Source: Spirochaetota bacterium
GTDB lineage: Bacteria > Spirochaetota > UBA12135 > COTS27
Direction of reading: 5' to 3'
Assembly (NCBI GenBank): GCA_965249715.1
Contig: CBDFMP010000047.1
Coordinates: forward strand, 51,922-115,921
Length of the DNA stretch: 64,000 nt
Position 1 is the stretch's first letter, and the number at the start of each line of letters is the position of its first letter. Shown here in pieces: positions 14,318-58,432 of the stretch. The notes beneath the pieces were generated by a model that had not been told where the DNA came from, made no database searches, and worked only from the letters and a program-made list of their open reading frames with translations. The position numbers and the translations under genes are program-made.

Positions 14318-15133
14318 TTGTTTGGGGTTTATACGCTGTATCAGTTGGGAGCGGATATGTTGGGTAGTACTGAAAAAAATCGCCAGATTAAAATAATTCG
14401 TATGCAATACGAAGAGCTTTCCACTAAGTGGGGCCATAATGTCAAAGAACTGGTGACACGTTTTGAAAAAAGATTTCAAGAGGCACGTAAGAATAAACAG
14501 GATATGGGAGTCTTTTTTACAGCGGAAAATGAGGCTATTAAGATCTTTGAAGAGCGCTTGCGCGATGGAGCTGATGAAGAGGAGCAAGAGCTGGAAAGGG
14601 AAGCTGAACAAAATTCCCCCGCTACTGGGCATCATGTTTCTACTATTGCTGAATATACGAATTATGAGCGTATTCATATTCATGAAAATGCATCAGCGGA
14701 GATTGAACATTTGTTTGGAGCGATGGTGGACTTCTCCAAGAAGCTTTTGCCTGTTTTGGAAGAGGTGCGTAAGCTTATTCGCGATAAAGCTTATCACAGC
14801 ATGAGTTATGAAATAGAGACTTTATTGCAAGATATCAGTCTTCAGCAGGAAGGGCGGCTGCCGAATGTATTTTCTGTTTATCGGGCAAAAGTTGTGCGCG
14901 CACGTAGCGGTGGAGAAGCTGAACGTGCACGTGCAGAGCCATTTAAGGCTATTTTAAATATTGCTCGTAAAGTCAAACGTTTGGGACGCTGGATTGAAAA
15001 TCATCATAGTAAGCTGCCCGCGTATATGCATGTCACCTACGATGGTGAAGGCCATTCGGCGCGCGAACTGGCAGTGATATCCGATGTGCAGCACATTGTG
15101 CGCAGTTTCGGATTGCAGGATTTTGCAGAATAA
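14318..15133 (+). CDS. hypothetical acidic protein
   Basis: 271-aa ORF directly downstream of rpoC with an Asp/Glu-rich middle segment. No family recognised. Its last ~55 nt seed the first unit of the tandem array that follows. Start could also be the M at 14354. Confidence 0.45.
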   Translation: MFGVYTLYQLGADMLGSTEKNRQIKIIRMQYEELSTKWGHNVKELVTRFEKRFQEARKNKQDMGVFFTAENEAIKIFEERLRDGADEEEQELEREAEQNSPATGHHVSTIAEYTNYERIHIHENASAEIEHLFGAMVDFSKKLLPVLEEVRKLIRDKAYHSMSYEIETLLQDISLQQEGRLPNVFSVYRAKVVRARSGGEAERARAEPFKAILNIARKVKRLGRWIENHHSKLPAYMHVTYDGEGHSARELAVISDVQHIVRSFGLQDFAE

Positions 15134-16245
15134 AAACGTCTAGCTTGGCAGTGCGGTTGTGCTTTGCGTGCTGGTCGCGCTTAGCGGCTGAGCCAGCTTT
15201 TCCAGCATTCGCCAATAAGTGTGCCTCCCACGGCGATGGCAATGACTGCAGGTGCAGCTGGAATATCTGACTATATGCTAAAAAAGATACCAAATCCTAT
15301 ATAAAATATATTCAGCAGGCTAGCGTAAACCATGGCACTGAATAAACTACGCGCGAACAGGAGCCGCAGTAGCGGCACCCAGCGCGCAAAAAGCGCGATG
15401 ATGAGGGTTATCCCTACTGCCTGAATGAGCGTGACAATGGCACAGGCACACAATAAGAGCAATCCCAGATGCAGGCGTTTAGTGGGAACTTTTTGTTAAG
15501 CTGATATCCGATGTGCAGCACATTGTGCGCAGTTTCGGATTGCAGGATTTTGCAGAATAAAAACGTCTAGCTTGGCAGTGCGGTTGTGTTTTGCGTGCTG
15601 GTCGCGCTTAGCGGCTGAGCCAGCGCTTTTCCAGCATTTGCCAATAAGTGTCCCACGGCGATGGCACTGAATAAGCTTACGCGCAAACAGGAGCCACAGT
15701 AGCGGCACCCAGCGCGCAAAAAGCGCGATGATGAGGGTGATCCCTACTGGAATGAGCGTGACAATGGCACAGGCACACAATAAGAGCAATCCCAGATGCA
15801 GGCGTTTAGTGGGAACTTTTCGTTAAGCTGATATCCGATGTGCAGCACATTGTGCGCTTCGGATTGCAGGATTTTGCAGAATAAAAACGTCTAGCTTGGC
15901 AGTGCGGTTGTGTTTTGCGTGCTGGCCGCGCTTAGCGGCTGAGCCAGCTTTTCCAGCATTCGCCAATAAGTGTGCCTCCCACGGCGATGGCAATGACTGC
16001 AGGTGCAGCTGGAATATCTGACCATACGCTAAAAAAGATACCAAATCCTATATAAAATATATTCAGCAGGCTGGCGTAAACCATGGCACTGAATAAACTA
16101 CGCGCGAACAGGAGCGCAGTAGCGGCACCCAGCGCAAAAAGCGCGATGATGAGGGTTATCCCTACTGCCTGAATGAGCGTGACAATGGCACAGGCACACA
16201 ATAAGAGCAACCCCAGATGCAGGCGTTTAGTGGGAACTTTTCTGA
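15077..16245. repeat. complex tandem array of three units (about 427, 327 and 415 bp). Each unit is the last ~55 bp of gene 14318..15133 plus the spacer plus the last ~300 bp of the permease gene (minus strand)
   Basis: Units begin with atatccgatgtgcagcacattgtgcg at 15077, 15504 and 15831. Copies differ by transitions, small indels and a ~100-bp internal deletion in unit 2. Only the last permease copy joins a full gene. The ORF-track pieces 15033..15293, 15271..15462, 15496..15789 and 15823..16044 are these fragments. Confidence 0.85.
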
Positions 16246-16783
16246 GAATGGCATAGTTTCGCTCGATGAAACTTAATTGCAGCTGGCGATAGCTTAAGAG
16301 AATAAAACCGATACTTGCAATGAGGACAGCTGTAATGAGTAACAGCTGAGTGTTGGTAATCAAAAAGAGTTCGCCAAAGAGCAGCGCTGAGAGGCTAGCT
16401 CCCAGCTGTTGTGTTTTTGTCAAAAAAATAATACCGCCGGCAATGCCGCTTGCCCAGAAGAGACTCAGCACAGTGTCTAATTTTGGACTTTCGCGCGCGC
16501 TCAGTACAGCAATGACAACTGCTGCACTCAGTGCTACGCTCAACGCACCCAGGAATGGGAAATTTAATGTGGCGCTCCATGTAGCTGGCAGCTGTTGATT
16601 GAGCAGCAACCCTAGGGCAATGCCGCCAAAACAGGTATGCGCTAAGCTTCCCGCCACATAAAGCAAACGTCGCGCAACAAGCAGTGTTCCCAGGATGCCG
16701 CTGAGTAGCCCCAAGGGGATGGCGCTTAACAGTGCGCGTTGAATAAAAGGTTCATTGAGATAAGCTTGCAGTTGTGTGAACAT
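15932..16783 (-). CDS. znuB: metal ABC transporter permease (ABC-3 / ZnuB-TroC family)
   Basis: 283 aa and polytopic. N-terminus MFTQLQAYLNEPFIQRALLSAIPLGLLSGILGTLLVARRL is typical of ZnuB/MntB permeases. Substrate could be Zn or Mn. Confidence 0.8.
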   Translation of the reverse strand: MFTQLQAYLNEPFIQRALLSAIPLGLLSGILGTLLVARRLLYVAGSLAHTCFGGIALGLLLNQQLPATWSATLNFPFLGALSVALSAAVVIAVLSARESPKLDTVLSLFWASGIAGGIIFLTKTQQLGASLSALLFGELFLITNTQLLLITAVLIASIGFILLSYRQLQLSFIERNYAILRKVPTKRLHLGLLLLCACAIVTLIQAVGITLIIALFALGAATALLFARSLFSAMVYASLLNIFYIGFGIFFSVWSDIPAAPAVIAIAVGGTLIGECWKSWLSR

Positions 16784-18052
16784 GGGAATGATAGAATGTC
16801 AATGTTTGTACAGGGTTGGCTGGATAATGGGCGGTGTTGAGGATGGTCTGCGGTTCTTAATCATGATAATGCGAATGGCTTAACATGGCGATTGTTTGCG
16901 GGTAGAGCTTAGCAGTACATTGTTTGTCAGGTATGCGCTAAGCTTCCCGCCACAGTAAACAAACGTCGCGCAACAAACAGTGTTCCCTGGATACCGCTGA
17001 GCAGCCCCAAGGGAATGGAGCTTAACAGAGTGCGCGTTGAATAAAAGGTTCATTGAGCTAAGCTTGCAAGTGTGCGAACATGGGAATGATAGAATGTCGA
17101 TGGTTGTACAGGATTGGCTGGATGCTGGGCGGCATTGAGGATGGTCTGCGGCTCTTAATCATGATAATGCGAGTGGTTTAACATGGCGATTGTTTGCGGG
17201 TAGAGCTTAGCAGTACATTGTTTGTCAGGTATGCGCTAAGCTTCCCGCCACAGTAAAGCAAACGTCGCGCAACAAACAGTGTTCCCTGGATACCGCTGAG
17301 CAGCCCCAAGGGAATGGAGCTTAACAGAGTGCGCGTTGAATAAAAGGTTCATTGAGATAAGCTTGCAAGTTGTGTGAACATGGGAATGATAGAATGTCAA
17401 TGTTTGTACAGGGTTGGCTGGATGCTGGGCGGCGTTGAGGATGGTCTGCGGCTCTTAATCATGATAATGCGAATGGTTTAACATGGCGATTGTTTGCGGG
17501 TAGAGCTTAGCAGTACATTGTTTGTCAGGTATGCGCTAAGCTTCCCGCCACAGTAAAGCAAACATCGCGCAACAAGCAGTGTTCCCAGGATACCGCTGAG
17601 CAGCCCCAAGGGAATGGAGTTTAACAGAGTGCGCGTTGAATAAAAGGTTCATTGAGCTAAGCTTGCAAGTGTGCGAACATGGGAATGATAGAATGTCGAT
17701 GGTTGTACAGGATTGGCTGGATGCTGGGCGGCATTGAGGATGGTCTGCGGCTCTTAATCATGATAATGCGAATGGTTTAACATGGCGATTGTTTGCGGGT
17801 AGAGCTTAGCAGTACATTGTTTGTCAGGTATGCGCTAAGCTTCCCGCCACAGTAAAGCAAACGTCGCGCAACAAGCAGTGTTCCCAGGATACCGCTGAGC
17901 AGCCCCAAGGGAATGGAGCTTAACAGAGTGCGCGTTGAATAAAAGGTTCATTGAGCTAAGCTTGCAAGTGTGTGAACATGGGGATGATAAAATGTCAATG
18001 TTTGTACAGGGTTGGCTGGATGCTGGGCGGCGTTGAGGATGGTCTGCGGCTC
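16784..18052. repeat. four extra ~300-bp tandem units between znuC and znuB. Each unit is the znuC 3' end plus the intercistronic spacer plus the znuB 5' end
   Basis: The znuC 3'-end marker catgataatgcgaatgg recurs at about 16863, 17163, 17463, 17762 and 18061 (last is genuine). The permease start cat...gaacatgggaatgatagaatgtc recurs at 16783 (genuine) and about 17080, 17380, 17678, 17977. Copies are diverged by SNPs and indels, and several pseudo-starts carry in-frame stops. Confidence 0.85.
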
Positions 18053-18937
18053 TTAATCATGATAATGCGAATGGTTTAACATGGCGATTGTTTGCGGGTA
18101 AAGCTTAGCGAGTGCATTGTTTGTGAACGCTGTTTTGGAAATGGTATGTACGGATTGTTTGACACAGAGCAGCTGATTGGAGAATTTGGGAGCTGCGTTG
18201 GTGTCATGTGAAACAATGAGAATGGTTTTGCCTTCAGCGCGCAGCTCTTGCAAAAGTTTATAAAAATGTGCTTCCGACTCTTCGTCAAGATTGGCAGTGG
18301 GTTCATCGAATAACAGGATGGGGGCATTGCTGATGAGTGCGCGTGCAATAGCGGCACGTTGCCGCTGTCCGGCAGAAAGTGTTATCAGCGGTACCGCAGT
18401 GAGTGCCTCCATTCCCACACGCAGCAAGGCCTTGTGAATACGCTCACGGCGTGCAGGCATGGCGGTGCGGATATTTTGGACAAATTGCCTAACTTGCTGC
18501 TTTAAAGACGGCAGTACAGGCTGAGCACTACGGATAGGGGATGATGGTTGTGAACGCTCAGTTTGTATGACGCCGCCCACACAACCAAGTGCAACATATT
18601 CTCCCAAACAAAGTGGAAAGGGGATGGGGGTGCCATGGCCGTAAGCAGCTGGCTGTTGTAAAACGCCATTGATGTAACGGCTGGGGAGCATGGCGGGTGT
18701 TAGCCCAGCAATATTGATGTTTCCCATTGTGGGATTGAGTTTGCCGCTGATGAGCATGAGGCACGTGGTTTTACCGCCGCCATTGGGGCCCAGTAAGGTA
18801 ACAATTTCACCTGCGGAGATGCTGAAACTAACAGCTTTAAGTGTTGGCTGGATTTGTGTGGGATAACGAAACGTGACCTTGTCGAAACACACTAGGGGCT
18901 TACCTTGCTGAGTGGTGGCGGCGGCGGTGATCGGCAT
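18053..18937 (-). CDS. znuC: metal ABC transporter ATP-binding protein (ZnuC-like)
   Basis: Walker A GPNGGGKT, signature LSAGQRQRAAIARAL, Walker B LLFDEP. Preferred start is MPITAAATTQQGKPLVCFDKV at 18937. The ORF track extends it to 19045, overlapping znuA. Confidence 0.8.
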   Translation of the reverse strand: MPITAAATTQQGKPLVCFDKVTFRYPTQIQPTLKAVSFSISAGEIVTLLGPNGGGKTTCLMLISGKLNPTMGNINIAGLTPAMLPSRYINGVLQQPAAYGHGTPIPFPLCLGEYVALGCVGGVIQTERSQPSSPIRSAQPVLPSLKQQVRQFVQNIRTAMPARRERIHKALLRVGMEALTAVPLITLSAGQRQRAAIARALISNAPILLFDEPTANLDEESEAHFYKLLQELRAEGKTILIVSHDTNAAPKFSNQLLCVKQSVHTISKTAFTNNALAKLYPQTIAMLNHSHYHD

Positions 18938-20066: not shown

Positions 20067-20110
20067 AGAGTTTTTTTTATAGTTTGTTTACACGCTGCCA
20101 TGCACGAGTA

Positions 20111-22426: not shown

Positions 22427-23242
22427 GTGAATTCACTGGTATCAGCATTAACGCGTATTGGGCAGTTAGAACGCCAATTTCAACAGTACTTCAGTAAAAC
22501 TGCGCCGCGCAATACGTTTACTGAAAGCAATGCTGCCTCAGCGCAGACCCCTGCTACTCCTACGGCAGCTTTATCACCATTTGCTACGTCGTTTGCCGCC
22601 ACTGATATTCTGCCGCAAAATTTATCCTCAGTGAATTTGGTTGATGGTCTAACAAATGGTCTAACCACCCAGTCTCCACTTGGCAATTTTAAGGAATTAC
22701 TTAACGCCAAGCTGCAATTAGCATCAGCGTCACCAACAACTGGCGGGCAGCAAACTGCAGTGAAGCAGCTTAAAACAAGCCCCATACAACAGGCGGCTCA
22801 GGTGCCTGTTGTACAAACAAGACAGTTAACGACTTTTCCTTTTCAGGCACAAATTACAGCTGCTGCAGAAGCCAATGGGTTGCCTGTCGCTTTGTTTCGC
22901 TCACTTGTAGCCGCTGAGTCGAATTTTAATCCACTGGCTGTATCGGCAAAAGGCGCTATGGGGCTGACTCAGCTTATGCCGCAAACGGCAGTCGCGCTTG
23001 GTGTCACGGAACCTTATGATGTGGAAGCCAATTTGCAGGGCGGCGCGCGCTACTTGCGAATGCTTTTGGATAAGTACGGCGGCGATTACGCTAAGGCGCT
23101 AGCGGCTTACAATGCCGGTGAGAAGGCTGTAGCACGTGCCGATGAGCTGAGTGGGGTCAGTGTGCCACCTTATGCTGAGACTAATCAATATGTGAAGCGT
23201 GTTTTAACAAGTTATTTAAAATATAGCGGGGTGAGTTTATGA
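22427..23242 (+). CDS. lytic transglycosylase (SLT domain) protein
   Basis: C-terminal AESNFNPLAVSAKGAMGLTQLMPQTA...AYNAG is the SLT catalytic core (ES...GLMQ...AYNAG). The N-terminal 130 aa are low-complexity. Possibly flagellum-associated, given its neighbours. Confidence 0.7.
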   Translation: MNSLVSALTRIGQLERQFQQYFSKTAPRNTFTESNAASAQTPATPTAALSPFATSFAATDILPQNLSSVNLVDGLTNGLTTQSPLGNFKELLNAKLQLASASPTTGGQQTAVKQLKTSPIQQAAQVPVVQTRQLTTFPFQAQITAAAEANGLPVALFRSLVAAESNFNPLAVSAKGAMGLTQLMPQTAVALGVTEPYDVEANLQGGARYLRMLLDKYGGDYAKALAAYNAGEKAVARADELSGVSVPPYAETNQYVKRVLTSYLKYSGVSL

Positions 23243-23862
23243 ATTTGGAACGTATTTTACGTATTGGCATATTACTGGTTGCAATTGGGTTAGGAGGATT
23301 GGTATTACTTTTTTTTATTGAGCAACAGCTGTTTATAACGGCTTATTCAAGCTTGAAAAGCAATTTGCCTGCCTTTTTGGTGAGTCAACCCAAACAAGAG
23401 CCCAGTCAGAGTGCTGAGCGTGCACGCGAATTGCAACTCTTAGCGGAAGAAGAACGTGCTAAGCTGCAAGAAAGCTTTTTTTTGCGTGAAAGCGGGCTTG
23501 CTGCAAAAGAGGCTATGCTGTTAGTTCTTGAACAGGAATTGCAAACTGAGCGTACCAATTTAATAACTGAACGTGAAGAGCTTCTGAAAATACGCGAACG
23601 TGCGGATACATTGGCGGCTGAAGCAGCCAGCTATGATAAAAAAATACAGGAGCTGGCGGAACGTTTTTATAATATGCCGCCACAAGCTGCTGCACCACGG
23701 ATTGTGGCATTGGAAGACGATATTCTTATTATCGACGTGCTTGCAGCCATGGATCTGGTCGCTGCTGAAAATGATCAACTTTCAATTGTGCCATTTCTGC
23801 TTTCATTAATGCCTGCAGAAGTTTCGGCGCGCATCATGAAAAAAGCGACAGTTGAGTTGTAA
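23239..23862 (+). CDS. single-pass membrane coiled-coil protein (FlbB/MotE-like, MgtE_N-like C-terminus)
   Basis: 207 aa. N-terminal TM helix, charged coiled coil, C-terminal IVALEDDILIIDVLAAMD...LMPAEVSARIMKK. Start overlaps the stop of the upstream gene by 4 nt. Confidence 0.4.
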   Translation: MNLERILRIGILLVAIGLGGLVLLFFIEQQLFITAYSSLKSNLPAFLVSQPKQEPSQSAERARELQLLAEEERAKLQESFFLRESGLAAKEAMLLVLEQELQTERTNLITEREELLKIRERADTLAAEAASYDKKIQELAERFYNMPPQAAAPRIVALEDDILIIDVLAAMDLVAAENDQLSIVPFLLSLMPAEVSARIMKKATVEL

Positions 23863-24813
23863 GCTGATTGTTCCCTAACCGTAAGCTTCAGGCAGCGGTT
23901 AATCACTAAAAGCTATAATCCTATAAACGCAGCAGCTTGTTTTAGCGGTTATGCTAGAATTAGGTGTTTGTTCGGCATAGTTTATTATTAAATGACCGAA
24001 CAGGTGTGACTAAATTAAACTTGTGGCAAAAAACTATCAAACACTCAGCTTTCAATTGTGCCATCTCTGCTTTCATTAATGCCTGCAGAAGTTTCGGCGC
24101 GCATCATGAAAAAAGCGACAGTTGAGTTGTAAGCTGATTGTTCCCTAACCGTAAGCTTCAGGCAGCGGTTAATCACTAAAAGCTATAATCCTATAAACGC
24201 AGCAGCTTGTTTTAGCGGTTATGCTAGAATTAGGTGTTTGTCCGGTATAGTTTATTGTTAAAGGATCGAATAGGTGTGACTAAATTAAACTTGTGGCAAA
24301 AAACTATCAAACACTCAGCTTTCAATTGTGCCATCTCTGCTTTCATTAATGCCTGCAGAAGTTTCGGCGCGCATCATGAAAAAAGCGACAGTTGAGTTGT
24401 AAGCTGATTGTTTCCTAACCGTAAGCTCCAGGCAGCGGTTAATCACTAAAAATTATAATCCTATAAACGCAGCAGCTTGTTTTAGCGGTTATGCTAGAAT
24501 TAGGTGTTTGTCCGGCATGGTTTATTATTAAATGACCGAATAGGTGTGACTAAATTAAACTTGTGGCAAAAAACTATCAAACACTCAGCTTTCAATTGTG
24601 CCATCTCTGCTTTCATTAATGCCTGCAGAAGTTTCGGCGCGCATCATGAAAAAAGCGACAGTTGAGTTGTAAGCTGATTGTTCCCTAACCGTAAGCTCCA
24701 GGCAGCGGTTAATCACTAAAAACTATAATCCTATAAACGCAGCAGCTTGTTTTAGCGGTTATGCTAGAATTAGGTGTTTGTCCGGCAGTTTATTGTTAAA
24801 GGATCGAATAGGT
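23863..24813. repeat. three extra ~270-bp tandem units between the FlbB-like gene and the AlkD-like gene
   Basis: Unit = internal fragment of the downstream gene (cognate at 24952-24990) fused to the last ~70 bp of the upstream gene, plus the spacer, plus the first ~40 bp of the downstream gene. The marker ctaaattaaacttgtggcaaaaaactatc recurs at about 24010, 24281 and 24551. The genuine junction is at 24811. Confidence 0.85.
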
Positions 24814-37467: not shown

Positions 37468-37487
37468 AGTATGACAGAGGGATGCGC

Positions 37488-41485: not shown

Positions 41486-41578
41486 CGTGATGCACTGATA
41501 CGCTTGCAGGATTATGCGTGCTGAGCCGCTGGTTTATACTGGGATGCAAGAGGGCTAAACTGACTGATGTAAGCCATT

Positions 41579-47585: not shown

Positions 47586-47590
47586 TTCCT

Positions 47591-48217
47591 ATGTTGTACG
47601 TAGATTATGAAGCAAACACAGTTGATGAGGCTGTGGTTAAGGCAGTTGAAAAACTGGGGGTCAATAAGGCGGATATCACGACGGAGGTTTTGCGCGAAGC
47701 CAAGCGGGGTATCTTTGGGATCGGGCAGAAGGCTCTTGCGAAAGTGCGCATTTATTACAAAGAGAAAAACGATATTGATGCAGTCTTAGCAAATGTAAAA
47801 GGATTGGTTATGCATTTGGATGAAGAGGCGAAAATCAATTTCCGTAAACTCTCAGAAACGCGCTACGATGTTGTCATCAATAGCCAAAATATTTCGCATA
47901 TGATCGGTAAAAAAGGGAAGACGCTTAAAGCTATGCAGACACTTGTGAATAGCTTTTTGCAGAAGTACAATAACCCCTGTAGTATTATTGTTGATATCGA
48001 TCATTACAATATGAAGCGCGAAGAACAGTTTTCACGATGGGCGGAAGGACAAGCGCGTGAGGTGTTGAAAACTAAACGTTCCATTGTTTTGAAGTCCTTG
48101 AATTCTTATGAGCGCCGAATTATTCACTTAGAAATTACAAAATTTAAGGATATCGTCTCAGAGTCCAAGGGAAAGGGGCGCATTAAAAACATTAAGATCA
48201 AGTACGTCGGCAGTTGA
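47591..48217 (+). CDS. jag: Jag/KhpB-like RNA-binding protein (KH + R3H domains)
   Basis: 208 aa. R3H-like YERRIIHLEI near the C-terminus. Conserved position after yidC. Confidence 0.8.
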   Translation: MLYVDYEANTVDEAVVKAVEKLGVNKADITTEVLREAKRGIFGIGQKALAKVRIYYKEKNDIDAVLANVKGLVMHLDEEAKINFRKLSETRYDVVINSQNISHMIGKKGKTLKAMQTLVNSFLQKYNNPCSIIVDIDHYNMKREEQFSRWAEGQAREVLKTKRSIVLKSLNSYERRIIHLEITKFKDIVSESKGKGRIKNIKIKYVGS

Positions 48218-48285
48218 ACTTGTGTTGCCACAGCTTGTGTTTAGTGGCGGATGGCTTTGTTGCCGTCAATTTAAATGAACCTGCT

Positions 48286-48308
48286 GATTGCGATTGCGAT
48301 TGCGATTG
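48286..48308. repeat. hexanucleotide repeat (GATTGC)x4 in the jag-mnmE spacer
   Basis: gattgcgattgcgattgcgattgtg. Confidence 0.7.
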
Positions 48309-48354
48309 TGTGAGCTTGGCTAGTGCGCTAAGCCGTGAGCGCGTGTAAGCGTTA

Positions 48355-49998
48355 TTGGGGGCGGGGGTGCCAATGGATGTTCTGACGCGTATGGACGCCA
48401 CCATCATCCAATTGCTTACCCCGCGTGCACCGGCGGCGGTGCATATTATCCGTCTTTCCGGGCAGGAAAGTCTTTCATTTCTACGCGCGCACACGCGTTT
48501 GCAGTCCAAGCTCAGTGCGCGGCGTATGTATTATACGCCGTTTTTTGCAGCGCCGCAGACAGCTGATGAAGTAGCTGGGGCTGTCCAAGCGCTCGATCAT
48601 ATTCTTTGTGTGTATTTTAACGCGCCTTATTCGTTCACGGGCGAAGCAGTGGTGGAATTGCATTTGCATGGCTCGCTTTTCATTGTAGATGAAGTGTTGC
48701 GTGCGGGATTGCGTGCGGGATTGCGGTTGGCAGAACGCGGTGAATTCAGCTATCGCGCATTTCTCAACGGCAAACTCACAAGCGAACAAGCTGAAGCTTT
48801 GGATGCACTGATCCATGCACGCAGTGTTTACACACATCGCAATGCCATTAACCTCCTCCAGCAGCAGAGCTCTTTTGCATTTGCTGACTTGCAGCATAAA
48901 TTATTGGCGATGCTGGCAACACTGGAGAGCGCGATTGAATTTCCCGAAGAAGACATTCCCGAGTTAGAGCTTGATAAAACAACACTTTACAGCCGTTATG
49001 AAAAACAATTGACCGAGCTGCAGCTGAGTTTTCAGCAGCTGCTTGCCAATTACCAACGCGGGCAAAAGTTGGAAGCGGGGCTCCGCGTTGTGATCCTGGG
49101 CGCGCCGAACGTAGGAAAATCCACCCTGCTCAATGTTCTATTGAATACCGAACGCGCTTTGGTCTCTGAACATGCAGGCACCACGCGTGATTACATTGAG
49201 GCGAACTTGGAGCTTGGCGGTACGCGTTTTATCCTCACAGATACCGCAGGACTGCGCGCAGCAGACGATGCAACAGAACGTGCAGGCATCGCCAAGACTG
49301 CTGAGGTGACCGCACACGCCGATGTTATCATTCTGCTGCTGGGTTTGACGGAAGGTTCAGGCGAGCAGCAATACGCTGAGCTGCGTGCGCAATGTGCCAC
49401 ATTGCTTGAGCTTGAGGAATTGAAGCTGGCGGAACGGGAAGCGATTGCCGCGCGCGCATCCAATGCTGCCGCTCCCCATGCAAAAGCCAATACACATCGC
49501 AATCATACAGGTGTGTTAGGCCTCAGTCCGCAGTTTTTGCTGTACTGGAACAAGTCCGATTTATGTCCAGCTGCTGTCTGGGATGAGTTATGTGTAAAAT
49601 TGCAAGCCGATGTTTCCTTTCAACGCCTCTTCCGCTTGGTACATTTAGTGGGGGGGATTGAGGCGCTGGACGTTAACCAGCGATTTTCATTGACACAGGA
49701 CGCAGCGGCAGCCATTGACAATGTGCAGGCAGCATTGCAACGCTGTGCAGTATCGATAAGCGGTGCGCGTGCTGATGGGCATTCCCTTGCCTTGCTCAAT
49801 GTCAGACAGGCGGCGATCACTGAGCGATTGCTCGCTGGTTTTGCGCGTGCATTGGAACTGGTGCGGGTGGGGGAGAGTGAGGAGATCTTAGCAGAGGAGT
49901 TTCGCACACTTGGCGACTACTTTAGCGAATTGGGGTTCTCTACCCACAATGAAAAACTTTACGATACGCTTTTTAAGCAGTTTTGTATTGGTAAGTGA
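48355..49998 (+). CDS. mnmE: tRNA modification GTPase MnmE (TrmE)
   Basis: 547 aa. G-domain GAPNVGKSTLLN, DTAGLR, NKSD. C-terminal FCIGK motif. About 35 extra Ala-rich residues lie between G3 and G4. Confidence 0.9.
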   Translation: MGAGVPMDVLTRMDATIIQLLTPRAPAAVHIIRLSGQESLSFLRAHTRLQSKLSARRMYYTPFFAAPQTADEVAGAVQALDHILCVYFNAPYSFTGEAVVELHLHGSLFIVDEVLRAGLRAGLRLAERGEFSYRAFLNGKLTSEQAEALDALIHARSVYTHRNAINLLQQQSSFAFADLQHKLLAMLATLESAIEFPEEDIPELELDKTTLYSRYEKQLTELQLSFQQLLANYQRGQKLEAGLRVVILGAPNVGKSTLLNVLLNTERALVSEHAGTTRDYIEANLELGGTRFILTDTAGLRAADDATERAGIAKTAEVTAHADVIILLLGLTEGSGEQQYAELRAQCATLLELEELKLAEREAIAARASNAAAPHAKANTHRNHTGVLGLSPQFLLYWNKSDLCPAAVWDELCVKLQADVSFQRLFRLVHLVGGIEALDVNQRFSLTQDAAAAIDNVQAALQRCAVSISGARADGHSLALLNVRQAAITERLLAGFARALELVRVGESEEILAEEFRTLGDYFSELGFSTHNEKLYDTLFKQFCIGK

Positions 49999-50101
49999 GC
50001 CACTAATGATTGAGCATGATGATCAATGATGCAGCTTGATTTATAGATTTTGGGTGGAATATGTTATAATGAGCTGCAAACTTTACACGAGGGGATGAAT
50101 A

Positions 50102-51838
50102 ATGGCAATTGGTAATGTTGATTTTAACGGTAATCATGATTTGGCAATGGTATTTCGTAATGGGGCTATTTATGATGTCCCATTTTTCCAACGCAGCTAT
50201 TCATGGGAAGCGGAGCAGTGGGAGGAACTATGGGAAGAGCTTGTCGCTTTATTAAACAAAGAAACGGATTATCATTACATGGGCTGTTTGGTACTGCAGC
50301 CCAGTCAGCGAGAGAAAAAAAAAGCATTTCGTATTATTGACGGTCAACAGCGTCTCGCAAGCTTTAGTATTATTATTCTTGCAGTACTCAGCCGCTTAAA
50401 TGCAATTATAAACGGACAAACCAATGATGCCGCAGCTGGAAATAAGGATCGTTTTGAAACGTTTGAAAAACAATATATTGGTTCAAAAGATCCCGTTAGC
50501 TTAGCATATTATACTAAGTTAAAACTTAATAAGGAAGATAATAATTTTTATTGCGATAGTCTGGTTCCGTTGAAAAAACCGGCATCAAGGTTTCCTAAGT
50601 CTTATTCACAACGTTTATTAGATAAAGCACTTAAATGGTTTGAACAAAAGCTGGAGGCACTGTACCAAAGTGACGGGGAAGCGTTGGCGAAATTTGTTGA
50701 AACCATTGCAGAAAAGACGTTTTTTACGGTTATTCAAGTTGATGATGAATCAGAGGCATTTGCTGTTTTCGAAACACTCAATGCACGCGGTGTTCAGCTG
50801 GCGCCAACAGATTTGCTAAAAAACTATTTGTTTTCAATAGTTAACAAGGAACCCGATACAACAGCTGCTAAAAAATATCTTAAAATAATGGAGGAAGCTT
50901 GGGAAGGTATGCTCAGTACACTTGGAGCTGATAAAGTCATGGACTTTATCAGAGCGTATTGGAATAGTAAACATGAATTGCCAAAGGGACGTAACTTATT
51001 TAAAACTATACGTCCTAAAGTTAAAATGCCCAAAGAGGCGTTTGATTTAGTCGCTGATTTAAAATTTAACGCTGGTATTTATGCTGTGTTAAGAAATCCT
51101 TATGATCGTAAGTGGGAGGATTTGGGTCAGAAAGATAAATTTGAAAAATATCTTAACGAATTAAAACTTTTTAGCAATATAAAACGGCCATTTCCGTTAT
51201 TATTAGCTGTTTATCGGAAGTATGCAGATACAGATGTCAATAAGCTTTTAACCTTTTTAAGATATGTTAGTATCATTACGTTTCGTTATAATGTCATTTG
51301 TGGTCTTGAGACGCGAGAACAGGAAGCTGTTTACAATAAAGCAGCACTAGCAGTTAATGAAAATAACTTAGACGATGCAAAAAGATATTTGCGAACATTA
51401 TATGGTAAAGTAGAAGATTCCACTTTTAAAGAGGCATTTTCAACGAAAGATATTAAGCGTGAAAAAATGACTAAATATATTCTTGCTGAATTAGAAAAAG
51501 ATGAGAGCGAGGGGCAAGGGAACTTTGAAGTTCCTGCTAGTGTTACGGTTGAGCATATATTTCCTCAGGGAGACACGCATTGGGATGACTGGCCAGCTAG
51601 TCCTGATTTAAAAGAGCATATCTTTCGTTTGGGTAATCAGACCTTGCTAGATGCCGGCGATAATCGAAACTTGGATAATAGTTCTTATGATAATAAAAAA
51701 GCTGTGTACCGCAACTCTCAATACAAGCTCACTTCTTCAATCCCCGATGAATTTCCTGAATGGAACGTTGAAAACATTAATGCACGTCAAAAAAATATGG
51801 CTAAACGTGCCGCTCAGCTCTGGCGCATCGACTTTTAA
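50102..51838 (+). CDS. GmrSD-like DUF262 (ParB-like, DGQQR) plus DUF1524 (His-Me finger) nuclease, a type IV restriction-like defence protein
   Basis: 578 aa. N-terminal FFQRSYSWE and IIDGQQRLAS motifs. C-terminal EHIFPQ and GNQTLLDAGDNRNLDNSSYDNKK (H...N...N) motifs. Own promoter-like tataat at 50065-50070 and an SD gagggga. Confidence 0.8.
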   Translation: MAIGNVDFNGNHDLAMVFRNGAIYDVPFFQRSYSWEAEQWEELWEELVALLNKETDYHYMGCLVLQPSQREKKKAFRIIDGQQRLASFSIIILAVLSRLNAIINGQTNDAAAGNKDRFETFEKQYIGSKDPVSLAYYTKLKLNKEDNNFYCDSLVPLKKPASRFPKSYSQRLLDKALKWFEQKLEALYQSDGEALAKFVETIAEKTFFTVIQVDDESEAFAVFETLNARGVQLAPTDLLKNYLFSIVNKEPDTTAAKKYLKIMEEAWEGMLSTLGADKVMDFIRAYWNSKHELPKGRNLFKTIRPKVKMPKEAFDLVADLKFNAGIYAVLRNPYDRKWEDLGQKDKFEKYLNELKLFSNIKRPFPLLLAVYRKYADTDVNKLLTFLRYVSIITFRYNVICGLETREQEAVYNKAALAVNENNLDDAKRYLRTLYGKVEDSTFKEAFSTKDIKREKMTKYILAELEKDESEGQGNFEVPASVTVEHIFPQGDTHWDDWPASPDLKEHIFRLGNQTLLDAGDNRNLDNSSYDNKKAVYRNSQYKLTSSIPDEFPEWNVENINARQKNMAKRAAQLWRIDF

Positions 51839-51860
51839 TACTTAATATTCATCATTCACC

Positions 51861-53813
51861 ATGCGATACAACTTCGACGTCGTTGTTATTGGGGCGGGAC
51901 ATGCAGGGCTGGAAGCCGCGCTGGCTGCTGCTAAATTAGGACAGTCAACCGCGCTGATCACCATCAATACCGATCACATTGTTTATATTTCCTGCAATCC
52001 GTCGATTGGCGGCTTGGGGAAAAGCCATATTGTCAAGGAGCTGCACGCCCTAGGGGGTGCAATGCCCGCACTCGCCGATCGCTCCGCTCTGCAATATAAA
52101 CTACTCAATAAATCGAAAGGCATGGCTGTTTGGTCATTGCGCGCGCAGATTGATAAATATCAATATTCCCGCTGTGCAAGTGATGCTGCTCTTTCCTGTC
52201 CCAAGCTTCAAGTCATCCAGGATCGCATTGACGAGCTGATTATTGATAAAAGCGGGGGAGGCAAGACAACCGCGCGTGTCCTGGGAGCAGTGGGGGAGCG
52301 CGGCACGGAATACCGTGCTCAGGCTGTCATCCTTGCTACCGGCACTTTTCTTGGCGGGAAGCTTTACATTGGCGACCACACCATACAGGGGGGGCGCCTT
52401 GGCGAGCTCAGCTCCACCAAGCTGGCGGCAGCACTCAAACAGTTTAACTTTAAGCTGGAACGATTGAAGACTGGGACTCCCGCGCGGGTACATAAGGATA
52501 GCATTGACACAACAGAGCTGGCCGTGGAGTGGGGCGATAACGATGAACCGTTGGCATTCACCGATGATTTCTCACTCAATCAAAACCCGCGCCTGCCGTG
52601 TTACATCACCTACACCAATGAAGCCACGCACGCTGTCATTCGCAACAATAAGGCGTGTTCGCCGATTTATTCAGGAAGCATTACCGGTACAGCGCCGCGT
52701 TATTGTCCATCCATTGAGGATAAGGTCTTTCGTTTTGCAGGAAAAACCAGCCACCAACTTTATTTGGAACCTGAAAGCGCGCACACAAAAGAAGTTTACA
52801 TTAATGGTCTCTCATCCAGTATGCCTGAGGACGTCCAATACGCTATGCTCCGTACCATTAAAGGTTTGGAGCAAGTGCGTGTGATCAAACCTGCCTATGC
52901 CGTAGAATACGATTACATTGAACCGACGCATATGCGGCATACATTGGAAAGCAAGCTGATTGCGGGGCTTTATTTTGCGGGACAAGTTAACGGTACATCG
53001 GGTTATGAAGAAGCTGCCGGTCAAGGGTTTATGGCCGGGGTCAACGCTGCCCGTAAAATTGCCGGTGCTGAGCCCTTCACGCTCAGTCGCACTGAAAGCT
53101 ACATTGGTGTCATGATAGACGATTTGGTCCTTAAAGGTGTGCGTGAACCTTATCGCATGTTCACCTCGCGTGCCGAACATCGCCTTTCGCTGCGTTTGGA
53201 TAATGCCGATCTTCGCCTCTTGCATTATGGTGTTCACTTAGGACTGGTGAATGCCGAGCGTGAAGCTGCGTTTAAGGAGCGCTTAAAAACATTGAAAACG
53301 CTTAAACAGCAACTTGCCGTGACAACACTGCCTGCTGATGAGCTTGCCGCCTGTTATGGCGATACGGCGTTGCCCGAGCATAAACTTTCCTATTTGCTTA
53401 CACGCGGAGATACTCCTTTTAGTAAATTACTGAGGCTCAGCGCCCCCCTGCTGCAACCCAACTTCAGCACCGCCTCCCCCGCCAGTAAAGCCCAACTCCT
53501 TCGCAATCTCAGTACCGCCGCTTGTGATATTAAATATCAAGGCTACATTTCCAAACAAGCCAAAGAACAAGCACGCCTGCACAAACACCTCAACCATAAA
53601 CTTCCGCATGGCTTTGATTATGCTGCCATCAGTAGTCTTAAATTAGAAGCGCGTGAAAAGTTACAGTGCATTCAGCCGTGTACACTGCTGGAAGCCTCGC
53701 GCATTCCCGGTGTTAAATCCAGTGATCTGGAAATTCTCCTCTGGACCCTCACCAAAGCTCGTCGCAATAAACCCGCTGCCGCCGCAACGTCCATCGCAAA
53801 ATCCAATAGCTAA
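51861..53813 (+). CDS. mnmG: tRNA uridine 5-carboxymethylaminomethyl modification enzyme MnmG (GidA)
   Basis: 650 aa. N-terminal FAD-binding [23 protein letters not shown] and GidA-typical blocks throughout. Confidence 0.95.
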
Positions 53814-54091
53814 GCTTGTACAAGTTCTTCTAAGCTTAAAGGTAAAGGCGTTGTGCGAGTGATTTTTAACGTTTGTTTGTGTTGTCTGCTGAAGCCTGCT
53901 TAACAGACGCTGACTTTATTAACACTGCGAGCCTTAGCGGTACTACTAAGAGGTTTTTTATTGTTTACATTGATTATGTGCTTGTTTTTAATGTTATACT
54001 TCATAAAATATGTTTAGTACCAACATTTTAATGTGAAACTATGGGATGATAACTTAATTTTAACTTTCAAATATTATTAAAGAAATTAACT

Positions 54092-57000
54092 ATGAAAATT
54101 ACTGATTTTATAAGCTTAAAAAGTGCGTTACTTTTACCTCTTGCATTTACTGCGTGCAGTGTTGCCGATGATGCCAGCATACGCACGCTCACATTTGAAG
54201 AAATGTTAGAACCTGCAATCACTCTCACCGATGCTAACGGGGAAGAGTTTTTCGGCGCTTCTGTCAATATTGAGTTTAATGACGATACGACTGGCGAGTC
54301 TACGGACGGCACTATTTTCGTTAACGGTTTTACGAATGTTTGTTCCAATCCGCCCTGCACGGACGCTGAGCTGCAGGAGCCCATCGGCCGCCTTACCATT
54401 ACTGGAATGTCCGATACTTTTACCCTCGCAGAGGACGCAGCAAGTAATGTCATCGACATACCTGATCAGGAAGGCGCTGCCAGCATCTCAGGTAACTTAG
54501 GCAACATTGTCATCACACGCACAAGTGACAAGGCGCTCCGCACCTATGCTGTCATTGTTCAGTACAGTGGGACGCTTGTCACTGAAATTGTCGACAATGC
54601 CGGAGGCTTTGTGAATGTCATTTCCCCAGCTATGGCACCTATGGCTAGCGCTACTTTGGGCTACCAAGCGACAACAACTGCTGTATGGGACGAAGAGGTA
54701 TTAGTCGTCACTGATATGGTGAACCTACCCGGTGATACCGCAATGGGAACGGTTTCTGTTACTGCCAGCGAACTTCCTGCTGGCTACTATGTCATGCCTT
54801 ACACCTATACCGACCCTGCCGGCACAAAGGCTGTCGCACTTATGGGTACACTTACCATTGCTGAAGGCGATGAAAATACACTAAGCGTAGCTTATGAGAA
54901 CCAAGCTTCTTACGACAACCTGCGCATTGAGCTAACTGAAGCGCCTGATCTTGCAATCACTCCCCAAGACCTGATCATCTCAGTAACGAATACGCTCAAC
55001 AACGATATCGTCCTTGACGCTGGGCACTTCGTTATTAATTACAACCATTTTACCGTTACCATCACTGACGCTACTATTTTTCACAATTTAAACGGAGCTG
55101 AGTTAAGTTTAAGCAGTGGTTCGCTTAGCCTTAGCGGAACAGAAAATAGCGCTTTTGATATTGATGCCGCAAATATAACTACCGTGTTTACGGATCCCAT
55201 CGGTACTGAAGCTATCACTACCAACCTCAATACTTTCAGCGTAACAAAAGATGCTATTTCTATTGACTACTCGCTTTATTTGACGTTTGCAAGTACTTAT
55301 AACTTCGAGCTGGATAGTGAGGTCATTGCTGACATGGAAACAGGTGTATCCGCTCCTTTTGTTATTGCAGCTTGCGATAACCCAACCAGCTCTATCTTCA
55401 CTATCGCCACTGACGGCACGACCAACTATTTTGCTAATGTGAGCGGACGTGTTAATTATTATTATAATAGCGCGATAGATGCTAATAACACCAATACCAT
55501 TGTCCTTACGGCTGATGATGGCAGTAGTTTGGATTTTACAGGAGCCATTGCTGTACAGAAGTGCGACAGTTTTGCAGGCGGCGATGGCAGCGCTGGCAAT
55601 CCCTGGCAAATTGATAACGATATGCAATTAGACCTTATGAGCCGCCTCATTAATAATGATGATGCCGCTACAGCTACATATAGTGACTACGGCGATGATG
55701 CCTACATCCTCACTGCGAACATCGATATGAGCATTCCCGAAGCGCCATGGGCAGAAGGTAGTTTGCACCCCAATGCAAATACAAACGGCTTCATACCCAT
55801 TGGCAAGAGTGTTAATCCTATCGGACTCTCAGTCTCACATCAAAGCAACAGCTTCAAGGGACAGCTGAACTGTGAGGCTAACAACACCCGCTATGCTATT
55901 GCGAATTTATACATTAACAATACAAATGACACTGCAGCTGAGAATACTGAGGGAGTTTTTATCGGTCTTTTCAGCGTTCTCACTAATGGCGCTGTGATTA
56001 CAAACTGTACATTGGAAAATGCTTCTATAACTGGATACCAAATTGTAGGAGGCATAGCAGGATATGCGTATAGTTCAAATAATGAGAATATTAGTATTGG
56101 AAGTAATATCGTTGCCAATAGTAGTATCACGGCTAATAGTAGCCGCGTAGGCAGTATTGTGGGAGTTATTTATAGTGTACAAAACAGCAGCATTGTTATC
56201 AGCAGCAATGCCGTTACAAATGGCAATGTTTCAACTGGCAATAGCTACGCAGGCGGCATCATAGGAGCTTCCACTAGTTCAGGCACCAGTACTAATACTA
56301 TCAGTGGCAATACCGTTACTGATGGAAGTATCACGGCTGACAATGACAACGCAGGCGGCATCACAGGGTATGTGGCTAGTTCCGGTGGTAATACTATTGT
56401 CAGCATGAATACTGTTACTGGCGGTAGCGTCACGGTAAACGATGATAACGCAGGCGGCATTGTGGGATATATTCATAGTTCACAGGACGCAAACAGTACC
56501 ATAAGCGGTAATACTGTTGCAAACGGCAATATCACCGCTAGCAACAATTTCGTAGGCGGTATTGCAGGATATATGTATAGTGGAGAGAGGGGCGGCGGCA
56601 CCCTCAGTAATAATGTTGTTACAAATGGCACCATCAGCGTAAGCTTCTATGATGCAGGCGGCATTGCAGGAGTGATGTATAGCACATCCTTTGGCAGCAA
56701 TGCCCTCAATGACAACGTCGTTACAAATAGCAGCATCACAGCTGATAATACAGCAGGCGGCATTGTGGGAGATGTGTATAGTTTAGAAGATGGCAGCAAT
56801 ATCATCAGCACGAATAACATTAGTGGCGGTAGCATCACGGCTAACATAAGCAACGCAGGCGGCATCGTGGGATTTATGTATAGTGAAAATGCCAGCAAGA
56901 GCAATGTCATCAATGCCGCGTTTGCCGCCACAACCATTACTGCCAGCAATGGAAACGCCGGCGGAGTAGTCGGGTACATTCTTCAGGGAGGCATCACTAA

Positions 57001-57445
57001 CAGCTTTTTTATGGGAACCATTAGTGCTGATAGCGGTACAGTTGGCGGTGTCGTGGGTTTTGTGACCGATACCACGTCCACTATCACCAACTCTTATGCG
57101 GCGGCAATTGTAACGGGTATTCCTGATACTAGCTATGGATTGGTGCCCACCAGCGTTACGGTCAACCATAGCTACTACAATAGCACATTGCACACAGGCG
57201 CAGCCGACAGTGCTGAGGGAACAGTCGCGCAAAGCCATGACGTGCTGCGATACCCCAGGGGCAGTAGAGGCATTTATGCGAACTGGGATGAAGCCAGTTG
57301 GGATTTCGGCACTGACGATCAGTACCCCATGCTGAGAGGATTGCCACTTACGGCTTCCGAGCAGTGCGGAGTTGCCGATGCTGCGCTTACCAGTGTGACG
57401 TTTAACTGTGGAACGGGTACGGGCGATACTGGTTACGATGATTAA
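54092..57445 (+). CDS. giant surface lipoprotein with an N-terminal Cys-x-x-Pro-Pro-Cys module and ~13 tandem GLUG-like 29-aa repeats
   Basis: 1117 aa. Lipobox LAFTAC-S. N-terminal module CSNPPCTDAE...IPDQEGA is paralogous to modules in 58617..63817. Repeats have consensus N-x-V-T-N-G-x-I-T-A-x-N-x-N-A-G-G-I-V-G-Y-x-Y-S. Ends ...NCGTGTGDTGYDD. Confidence 0.7.
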   Translation: MKITDFISLKSALLLPLAFTACSVADDASIRTLTFEEMLEPAITLTDANGEEFFGASVNIEFNDDTTGESTDGTIFVNGFTNVCSNPPCTDAELQEPIGRLTITGMSDTFTLAEDAASNVIDIPDQEGAASISGNLGNIVITRTSDKALRTYAVIVQYSGTLVTEIVDNAGGFVNVISPAMAPMASATLGYQATTTAVWDEEVLVVTDMVNLPGDTAMGTVSVTASELPAGYYVMPYTYTDPAGTKAVALMGTLTIAEGDENTLSVAYENQASYDNLRIELTEAPDLAITPQDLIISVTNTLNNDIVLDAGHFVINYNHFTVTITDATIFHNLNGAELSLSSGSLSLSGTENSAFDIDAANITTVFTDPIGTEAITTNLNTFSVTKDAISIDYSLYLTFASTYNFELDSEVIADMETGVSAPFVIAACDNPTSSIFTIATDGTTNYFANVSGRVNYYYNSAIDANNTNTIVLTADDGSSLDFTGAIAVQKCDSFAGGDGSAGNPWQIDNDMQLDLMSRLINNDDAATATYSDYGDDAYILTANIDMSIPEAPWAEGSLHPNANTNGFIPIGKSVNPIGLSVSHQSNSFKGQLNCEANNTRYAIANLYINNTNDTAAENTEGVFIGLFSVLTNGAVITNCTLENASITGYQIVGGIAGYAYSSNNENISIGSNIVANSSITANSSRVGSIVGVIYSVQNSSIVISSNAVTNGNVSTGNSYAGGIIGASTSSGTSTNTISGNTVTDGSITADNDNAGGITGYVASSGGNTIVSMNTVTGGSVTVNDDNAGGIVGYIHSSQDANSTISGNTVANGNITASNNFVGGIAGYMYSGERGGGTLSNNVVTNGTISVSFYDAGGIAGVMYSTSFGSNALNDNVVTNSSITADNTAGGIVGDVYSLEDGSNIISTNNISGGSITANISNAGGIVGFMYSENASKSNVINAAFAATTITASNGNAGGVVGYILQGGITNSFFMGTISADSGTVGGVVGFVTDTTSTITNSYAAAIVTGIPDTSYGLVPTSVTVNHSYYNSTLHTGAADSAEGTVAQSHDVLRYPRGSRGIYANWDEASWDFGTDDQYPMLRGLPLTASEQCGVADAALTSVTFNCGTGTGDTGYDD

Positions 57446-58432
57446 TACCCAACGTACATAACCCTTGCTTTTGCGGGGACGCGGGGCATAGTGGGGAAGG
57501 CTTGCCATGCTCCGCCTGTTAATGTTTTTAATTGCCGTTGCCCATAAAATCAGCGGCGGCGGCTTTTTCTTCCAGCAGCTCACGGCGGGTGGCGTTCAAC
57601 TTCTTCTGAGCAAGGGTGTCATGGGCACTGGCAGCGGATGAAGAGCCGCGCGCCTTGAATGAGCGTTGCGCCGCCGTTGCTGAACATTGTCGATAAACTC
57701 GCCGCGCAGCCAGCTTTCGTTGTCAATGACAGTCGTGACGGGTTTCGTGTCAATGGTGCCGGTGCTATTGGCAAACTATTGGCAAAATCGAAAAATTGGG
57801 TGCTGGAATGCCAGTAGCTGGGATTTCGGCGCTAATGACCAGTACCCCATGCTGAGAGGACTGCTGCTTACAGCTTCAGAGCAATGCCAAGCCGCGGATG
57901 CTGCGCTTACCAGTGTGACACTTAACTGTGGAACAGGTACGGGCAATACTGGCTACGATGAGTAAGGCACACTAAAACTCACCGCGCCGCTTGCGGGAAC
58001 GCGGGGCATAGTGGGGAAGGCTTGCCATGCTCCGCCTGTTAATGTTTTTAATTGCCGTTGCCCATAAAATCAGCGGCGGCGGCTTTTTCTTCCAGCAGCT
58101 CACGGCGGGTGGCGTTCAACTTCTTCTGAGCAAGGGTGTCATGGGCACTGGCAGCGGATGAAGAGCCGCGCGCCTTGAATGAGCGTTGCGCCGCCGTTGC
58201 TGAACATTGTCGATAAACTCGCCGCGCAGCCAGCTTTCGTTGTCAATGACAGTCGTGACGGGTTTCGTGTCAATGGTGCCAGTGCTATTGGCAAACTATT
58301 GGCAAAATCGAAAAATTGGGTGCTGGAATGCCAGTAGCTGGGATTTCGGCACTGACGATCAGTACCCCATGCTGAGAGGATTGCCACTTACGGCTTCCGA
58401 GCAGTGCGGAATTTCCAATAGCTAAGCTTGTA
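57446..58432. repeat. two ~520-bp tandem units, each a ~290-bp segment of unknown origin plus a copy of the last ~55 codons of the lipoprotein gene. The array ends in a 26-bp copy of the mnmG 3' end
   Basis: C-terminal copies at 57800-57965 and 58320-58405; genuine at 57280-57445. tccaatagctaagcttgtacaagttc occurs at 53801-53826 and at 58407-58432. ORF-track 57687..57965 and 58207..58425 are the copied fragments. Confidence 0.75.

Follow-up and report, generated by a model that had tools for sequence, protein, structure and literature searches.

We analysed a window of 64 kb (64,000 nucleotides; positions 51,922 to 115,921 of contig CBDFMP010000047.1, assembly GCA_965249715.1) from a marine Spirochaetota bacterium that resembles starfish symbionts, in which five long-period tandem arrays, here called A1 to A5, are placed between intact open reading frames (ORFs). 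The window carries tRNA-Thr/Trp, secE, nusG, rplKAJL and rpoBC and, further along, rnpA, yidC, jag, mnmE and mnmG. Arrays were detected by a combination of Tandem Repeats Finder (TRF), a direct-repeat search and self-BLAST of the whole window; A1 was missed by TRF and was recovered by the other repeat searches. The array units are ~199-520 bp long, are present in 2-5 copies and are 84-99% identical to each other, and the repeats extend into the flanking genes by 45-310 bp. Since the self-BLAST E-values of the arrays range from 0 to 1e-87, chance is excluded. An earlier note on this DNA had reported five arrays in 64 kb; we recovered all of them by TRF and self-BLAST, what had been delimited as arrays being the gaps between the intact ORFs.

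A1 (15075-16241) lies between two convergent genes. Upstream is an intact conserved hypothetical gene that follows rpoC (14318-15133, plus strand) and whose product ends in FGLQDFAE, matching the orthologues; on the other side is the intact ABC-3 (ZnuB-like) permease gene (15932-16783, minus strand), which separates A1 from A2, has outermost repeat copies as both of its ends and retains the residues that are invariant among orthologues. The three A1 units (15077-15503, 15504-15830 and 15831-16241; 427, 327 and 411 bp) are 96-98.5% identical, and each combines the spacer with the final 57 bp of the hypothetical gene and the final ~310 bp of the permease gene. A 7-nt filler, GTTAAGC, is found at both unit junctions, which differ from each other by one base, and 96 bp are deleted from unit 2 between ATGGCA repeats. 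A2 (16632-18124) lies within the znu operon and holds 5.0 copies of a 299-bp period (units of 296-300 bp, 93-98% identity). In its unit the spacer is flanked by the initial 152 bp of the permease gene and the final 72 bp of an ABC ATPase (ZnuC-like) gene (18053-18820, minus strand); the ATPase gene is intact, and its last 72 bp constitute the outermost A2 copy. All four A2 junctions are blunt and identical (...CATTGTTTGT/CAGGTATGCGC...). The sequence variants alternate along the array, with unit 2 resembling unit 4 and unit 3 resembling unit 5, and the TRF score of the 599-bp period is higher than that of the 299-bp period.

A3 (23775-24822; 3.9 copies of 270 bp, 96-99% identity) is located between two intact plus-strand genes, the upstream one without an assigned family (23239-23862) and the downstream one of the DNA-alkylation-repair family (24778-25545). 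Within each unit, the final 88 bp of the upstream gene and a spacer of 105 bp are followed by the initial ~45 bp of the DNA-alkylation-repair gene and then by a piece of 34 bp from inside the same gene, the native position of which is 133 bp further in; the source of this terminal piece of 34-40 bp is found at 24955-24994 (plus strand). The three A3 junctions are identical and sit at a TCA/TTTC microhomology, with the outer junction in TCA-n-TTTC. A4 (31832-32383) comprises three units of ~199 bp with 84-95% identity, located between an intact SIR2-family gene (31053-31898, plus strand) and an intact, convergent family-9 glycosyltransferase (GT9) gene (32330-33532, minus strand), the 3' end of which is the last A4 copy. 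Its unit contains the spacer between the final 67 bp of the SIR2-family gene and the final ~54 bp of the GT9 gene. Units 2 and 3 additionally carry in front an internal SIR2 fragment (31988-32048 and 32184-32269) that originates from 31581-31662 (plus strand) inside the SIR2-family gene, and the internal deletions of A4 lie at GGAGC, TGCGCT and GCGGC repeats.

The last array is organised differently. A5 (57283-58423) has a period of 520 bp repeated 2.2 times and is arranged as a1-X1-a2-X2-a3. The a segment corresponds to the final ~150 bp of a gene that we call gene A (54092-57445, plus strand); gene A encodes a repetitive, probably surface, protein of 1117 amino acids, and its 3' end is the first A5 copy, while a3 is a 72-bp partial copy identical to a1. 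The X segment (~345-370 bp) has no intact partner gene. A Pfam search of X gave no match; its minus strand contains two open frames, and X may be the relic 3' end of a gene. X1 and X2 differ at 2 positions (99.4% identity), whereas a2 (57816-57965) differs from a1 at 22 of 150 nt (85% identity) and keeps its stop codon at the same place. Synonymous changes account for 10 of the 18 changed codons (P ~0.016 versus random placement), and a2, the single variant cassette in A5, differs from a1 by 8 amino acids.

The surroundings of A5 are repetitive as well. Gene A is a 34%-identical paralogue of a giant repetitive gene downstream (58617-63817, probably encoding a surface protein), which contains three internal tandem repeats of ~1541-1559 bp (59356-63051) with 80-84% nucleotide identity and is represented by two overlapping ORFs, 58617-60746 and 60542-63817, the frame shifting at around 60.56-60.75 kb. 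An exact direct repeat of 26 bp, composed of the last 11 nt of mnmG and the 15 nt downstream of it, is present at 53802-53827 and again at 58414-58439; the two copies flank gene A together with A5 (4.6 kb), and the right copy lies at the right end of A5. This pair could be what remains of an insertion, or of a larger duplication most of which has been deleted.

The anatomy of the arrays bears on how their units were put together. It had been claimed that the units combine gene ends with the intervening spacer and that some of them carry an internal fragment of a neighbour. The former is true of A1-A4 and fails for A5, where X lacks an intact partner gene; the latter is seen in A3 and A4. The earlier note had seen in such units either template switching or slipped tandem duplication, and multi-step template switching turns out to be unneeded. 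In A1-A4 all segments stand in native order and orientation and the discontinuities are deletions; given this collinearity with the native DNA, a larger founder followed by deletions suffices, the internal deletions yielding both the 'mosaic' A3 and A4 units and the short A1 unit. The founding duplications of A1, A2, A3 and A4 would then be about 427, 299, 405 and 407 bp in size, respectively. The observation that only the outermost copies join intact genes is likewise correct; it is automatic for any two-gene tandem duplication and indicates no special architecture.

For comparison we used four related genomes. The closest sequenced relative is COTS27 (AP019861, a 2.68-Mb chromosome; 82% RpoC identity), a member of the order-level 'marine spirochetes' clade with 1650 protein-coding genes in 2.68 Mb, or one gene per 1.6 kb, and no transposable elements (PMC7444263). 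The COTS27 genome was assembled independently and its structure was verified by mate pairs and PCR; repeats are mentioned in that paper only as tandem repeats of genic regions that gave rise to gaps in the assembly (PMC7444263). The three others, L002, L003 and L004, are more distant (66-70% RpoC identity). We sampled 47 kb of COTS27, including the 24-kb locus L001 (AP019861 794969-819129), with which the window shares the gene order rpoC-hypothetical gene-znuBCA. The comparison of orthologous junctions covers A1 and A2 only, in COTS27 (L001) and L002; in COTS27 no close orthologue was found of the phosphoenolpyruvate carboxylase that we sought as an anchor for the A3 and A4 junctions. In both relatives the junctions orthologous to A1 and A2 are single-copy, as the earlier note had proposed to check, from which it follows that the arrays are younger than a deep split, and nothing more.

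Comparison of the copies with each other and with orthologues revealed extensive decay. Across the arrays the variable columns comprise 83 transitions and 32 transversions, and the copies differ by indels of 1-4 bp and of 29-133 bp that are not homopolymer errors; four of the five internal deletions (29-133 bp) lie at 5-6 bp direct repeats. The copies differ in the way that the earlier note had claimed, and the arrays are of several ages rather than one recent event. In A1, units 1 and 2 have in common +1 and +2 indels that disrupt the LGAATA stretch of the permease, and unit 1 also contains a stop codon; the A-T-A of this stretch does not vary between the orthologues of COTS27 and L002, and the outer, functional copy has kept it. 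Similarly, the four inner permease starts of A2 have in common a 2-bp insertion and stop after 7-10 codons, and the outer copy stays open. At their C-termini, which are encoded by outer copies, the hypothetical protein and the ATPase match the orthologues. The dispensable inner copies thus evolve like pseudogenes and the outer copies are conserved, with the exception of the A5 segment a2 and its synonymous excess.

The same pattern speaks to the reality of the arrays. A metagenome assembler might have turned a cycle, or the variants of several strains, into tandem copies present in no cell: the contig that holds the window is metagenome-assembled, the species is represented by a single assembly, array copy number is the feature that is most often misassembled, and the middle unit of A5 resembles a second allele. 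Assembly of a cycle, however, requires the novel unit-unit junctions to be present in the reads. Moreover, the copies differ by non-homopolymer indels and have a coherent substitution history, rpoB and rpoC, large genes of the window, are intact, and COTS27, with its independent and mate-pair- and PCR-checked assembly, is tandem-repeat-rich too. Since the shared frameshifts and stops are confined to the dispensable, non-functional inner copies, a distribution that would result neither from misassembly nor from stacked strains, an assembly artefact is disfavoured. We consider it very unlikely and, on the strength of this pattern of mutations, take the arrays to be real DNA, with copy numbers as assembled.

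We propose that the arrays arose as tandem segmental duplications and are decaying neutrally in a marine, host-associated spirochaete of a repeat-accumulating lineage, a reading to which we assign a probability of roughly 0.73. The junctions suggest that, as the first step, a boundary-spanning segment of 300-520 bp would have been duplicated head to tail by illegitimate, homology-poor joining along a RecA-independent route, for instance by slippage during replication or by misalignment of sister strands. At the founding junctions, A2 is blunt, A1 contains the 7-nt filler, which looks untemplated, and A3 and A4 show homology that is 3-4 bp long or imperfect over ~14 bp. The claim that junctions sit at microhomologies accordingly stands for four of the five internal deletions (5-6 bp) and, in short and imperfect form, for A3 and A4, and falls for the blunt junctions of A2 and the filler of A1. 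In the second step the founder was amplified by unequal homologous exchange between units, as shown by junctions that are identical within an array and by the two-unit variant pattern of A2. In the third step the units eroded through deletion at repeats of 5-6 bp, through small indels and through substitutions biased towards transitions; shared frameshifts and stops disabled the inner fragments, and the outer copies remain under purifying selection.

The location of the arrays at gene boundaries, and especially at 3'-3' boundaries, can be accounted for by a fourth step in which selection would purge those duplications that are intragenic or that multiply promoters or start codons, and would act only weakly against extra non-coding DNA in a host-restricted symbiont lineage. 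When the two end points of a duplication fall in separate genes, each gene necessarily retains one intact copy; an intragenic duplication of 300-500 bp would disrupt the gene and be lost, so that boundaries would become over-represented among the survivors. The proposal that these are tandem duplications at gene boundaries is supported.

Alternatively, the boundaries could be mechanistic hotspots: duplications would favour the ends of transcription units, convergent ones in particular, where replication forks stall and switch template at little or no homology, as in fork stalling and template switching and microhomology-mediated break-induced replication (FoSTeS/MMBIR), with transcription-replication conflict and trapped supercoiling proposed as causes of the stalling. 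In substance, the earlier note had read the arrays in this way. The 42 gene junctions of the window comprise 2 convergent, 3 divergent and 37 co-directional ones. Long-period arrays occupy both of the intact convergent junctions (15133/15932 and 31898/32330) and none of the three divergent ones (P ~0.012 for five arrays among the 42 junctions), and A5 may hold a relic convergent 3' end. In COTS27, an unrelated array with a 44-bp period is present at the orthologous convergent junction between the hypothetical and the ABC-3 permease genes (L001 15466-15647), and the microhomology at some junctions and the filler DNA at one also count in favour of a hotspot. The sample is tiny, however, and selection predicts the same enrichment, 3'-3' junctions being devoid of promoters, start codons and operon coupling. 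Furthermore, the pieces of the mosaic units are always collinear and in the same orientation, whereas events with multiple switches often yield inverted or out-of-order segments, and no inverted repeats, terminators or terminator-like structures or hairpins common to the units were found in the five arrays. The convergent enrichment fits both selection, since 3'-3' spacers tolerate junk best, and a replication-transcription hotspot, and the data cannot separate the two; overall, we regard the hotspot as an unlikely explanation. The idea of a lineage propensity for duplication at gene boundaries thus stands in one respect, the window and COTS27 being repeat-rich where L003 and L004 have almost no repeats, and is weakened in the other, since selection can produce the preference for boundaries.

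One candidate for a sequence driving the duplications, the motif AGCTTGGCAG, was rejected, as it is enriched only by virtue of lying inside the arrays. Allowing for at most one mismatch, it has 22 matches in the window, all on the plus strand, 10 of which are inside A1, A2 and A4; the related heptamer TTGGCAG makes up the microsatellite at 41577-41719.

We also weighed whether the arrays serve a function. They could multiply regulatory signals, such as the promoter-like sites and decoy ORFs of A2 upstream of znuB or terminators at 3' ends, and A5 could store a silent cassette for recombination into a surface-protein gene at its 3' end, in the manner of the spirochaete vls and tprK donor sites. 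Each A2 unit does contain the same promoter-like match and an ORF of 7-10 codons; the match is weak (9/12), though, and not enriched over shuffled sequences. The a2 segment of A5 has a frame that is open to the same stop and the excess of synonymous changes described above, and gene A belongs to a repetitive surface-protein family; against this, A5 offers a single variant cassette with only 8 amino acids changed. Disabling mutations and deletions accumulate in the inner copies as they do in neutral DNA, no motif or structure common to the units was found, and the orthologous junctions of the relatives do without these arrays. Taken jointly, the regulatory and the cassette versions of this explanation appear highly improbable.

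We give practically no credence to a mobile or templated-mutagenesis element, be it a miniature inverted-repeat transposable element (MITE) or insertion sequence (IS), a repetitive extragenic palindromic (REP)-like element, a diversity-generating retroelement (DGR) pair or a CRISPR-like array. Repetitiveness is all that speaks for it; adjacent genes and spacers account for every unit, except for X of A5 and the 7-nt filler. The mobile-element reading was rejected because self-BLAST found neither dispersed copies of units nor cross-array matches in the window, no terminal inverted repeats are present at the arrays, and no transposase, integrase or reverse transcriptase was found among the window ORFs, a reverse transcriptase domain being absent from every large ORF. 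The DGR reading was rejected for want of a reverse transcriptase and of adenine-specific differences: the variable columns include 44 A/G and 39 C/T columns, and A is involved in 61 of 115. This agrees with the earlier argument against a DGR-type mechanism. The CRISPR-like reading was rejected as well, and Rfam yielded no match in the arrays, its only matches in the window being two tRNAs that lie outside them.

Several points weigh against neutral, decaying tandem duplication as the whole explanation. First, A5 misfits simple in-situ decay: a2 is 15% diverged with a synonymous excess, and the X copies on either side of it are 99.4% identical. A5 resembles a recent duplication whose central gene fragment has been replaced by a diverged functional allele or paralogue, and a2 itself, judging from its codons, looks like an imported functional allele or silent cassette and not like a product of in-situ decay. 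Second, the account of boundary location by survivorship is an argument from logic, and the convergent enrichment could instead reflect a mechanistic hotspot. Third, the copy numbers and the reality of the arrays are judged from the assembly. Fourth, a 'genome-wide' habit is extrapolated from 64 kb of this genome. Finally, the COTS27 arrays in the sampled 47 kb are mostly short-period (11-106 bp), intergenic and free of gene fragments; long gene-fragment units may be specific to the organism of the window.

Repeat load was assessed in the window and in the loci of the relatives. TRF coverage is 7.05% of the window, or 8.9% when A1 is included, and amounts to 13.0% in L001 of COTS27, 2.0% in L002 and less than 0.5% in both L003 and L004. 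Published tandem-repeat coverages are 6.3% for Ehrlichia ruminantium and 0.38% for E. coli (PMC3287509, Table 4). These values support the conclusion that the lineage of the window and COTS27 is unusually tandem-repeat-rich for bacteria.

The suggestion that the arrays represent an undescribed class does not hold, since E. ruminantium is already the classic case. Its tandem repeats were the subject of Collins et al. 2005 and Frutos et al. 2006, and it exemplifies a genome dominated by actively expanding and contracting non-coding tandem repeats, with a mean period of 139 bp and periods of up to 471 bp, for which slipped-strand mispairing is held responsible (PMC10710844, PMC3287509). The arrays of the window belong with the long-period non-coding tandem repeats of this type. 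E. ruminantium resembles our organism in being host-restricted and in having long intergenic regions and many long-period repeats between genes; on the side of the window, the resemblance lies in head-to-tail units of 199-520 bp, intact flanking genes and a high repeat load. The differences are equally clear. E. ruminantium is an obligate intracellular member of the Alphaproteobacteria with 27-29% GC, whereas the organism of the window is a marine, probably extracellular, spirochaete with 47% GC. Copy-number variability was shown experimentally in E. ruminantium, whereas the arrays described here are known from one assembly, in which the higher-order period and shared variants of A2 imply repeated unequal exchange; on the other hand, the units here demonstrably derive from the ends of both flanking genes, and their steps of decay can be read. 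The E. ruminantium repeats are, reportedly, also associated with duplicated and truncated genes (Collins et al. 2005).

VNTR-105 and VNTR-141, two Wolbachia loci named for variable-number tandem repeats (VNTRs), provide a further parallel: they are intergenic long-period arrays of few copies, with internal deletions, units that are 98-99% alike and a proposed origin by slippage (PMC3287509). They differ in that hairpins and short internal repeats occur within their periods, which have not been described as pieces of flanking genes, and the repeat load of Wolbachia is much lower, at 0.9-1.6% of the genome (PMC3287509). COTS27 resembles the window in its syntenic rpoC-hypothetical gene-znuBCA region, its richness in tandem repeats and its lack of transposable elements, and differs in that the junctions orthologous to A1 and A2 carry no gene-fragment arrays. 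Classical bacterial tandem duplication, as worked out by Anderson and Roth and by Reams and Roth, involves RecA-independent, low-homology founding followed by homology-driven amplification or loss; textbook cases range from kilobases to hundreds of kilobases and include whole genes, and they are unstable and as a rule maintained by selection. The arrays share with it the low-homology founding join, the homology-driven amplification and the absence of gene disruption where the end points fall in separate genes, and differ in that their units are sub-genic (0.2-0.5 kb), diverged by 1-16% and apparently neutral. With FoSTeS/MMBIR (Hastings et al. 2009) they have in common some junction microhomology, one filler and composite-looking units; their collinear units, however, are explained by later deletions, one founding junction is blunt, and no inverted or out-of-order segments were seen. 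The mycobacterial interspersed repetitive units (MIRUs), finally, are a dispersed family of 40-100 bp units at many loci. Like the arrays, they are tandem units between operon genes that overlap flanking stop and start codons, whereas the arrays described here are each locus-specific in sequence.

Short-period arrays are also present in the window. A 14-bp repeat (GCTTAGTGAAGTGA), repeated 8.6 times at 37486-37603, fills a co-directional operon spacer and is part of the repeat-rich habit seen in the long arrays. At 41577-41719, 20 copies of TTGGCAG lie in the spacer between the permease and substrate-binding-protein genes of a peptide-type ABC transporter, and this array looks like a contingency locus. 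In COTS27, a gene-free stretch of 2.6 kb (L001 18855-21481) consists almost entirely of tandem repeats with periods of 16-106 bp, and the secE-nusG-rplK spacers of the ribosomal-protein operon are enlarged by repeats.

We considered mismatch-repair loss as a feature of the clade and ruled it out, since COTS27 has MutS elsewhere (P0244, locus L005). In L003 and L004, mutS follows rpoC, the hypothetical gene and a methyltransferase gene, and the window, COTS27 and L002 have the znu operon in that place. The COTS27 MutS ORF (L005 10001-13051) is 1016 amino acids long versus 874-886 in relatives, and its best local alignment spans only 52% of the query, which suggests that this MutS carries an insertion or a divergent half.

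The window offers three further observations. The ZnuC-like ATPase (18053-18820, minus strand) has ~34 residues more than its COTS27 and L002 orthologues, in a segment between the Walker A region and the signature motif, with a 3-residue insertion just upstream. An origin-type cluster, rnpA-yidC-jag-mnmE-mnmG, is found at 44832-53813, with a GmrSD-family restriction gene between mnmE and mnmG. The plus-strand GC skew changes from positive to negative near 52-58 kb of the window.

The arrays do not reveal a new class of element or a new mechanism. What they provide is an unusually legible record, in which the founding junction, homologous amplification, deletions at short repeats and pseudogene decay can all be read in the sequence. 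The annotation and assembly of metagenome-assembled genomes is affected by such loci, as they generate ORFs from gene fragments, inflate intergenic DNA and make copy numbers uncertain. The arrays would also serve as high-resolution VNTR markers for tracking the symbionts. The repeat load suggests that echinoderm-associated marine spirochaetes join E. ruminantium among the most tandem-repeat-laden bacteria. It is an unlikely possibility that the lineage including COTS27 has an active duplication process at the ends of transcription units, convergent 3'-3' ends in particular, that continuously spawns arrays of gene fragments. If this were true, E. ruminantium would have in this lineage a second counterpart, independent and GC-neutral, and the lineage would offer a natural system in which replication-transcription conflict seeds repeats and, possibly, new ORFs or silent cassettes like a2.

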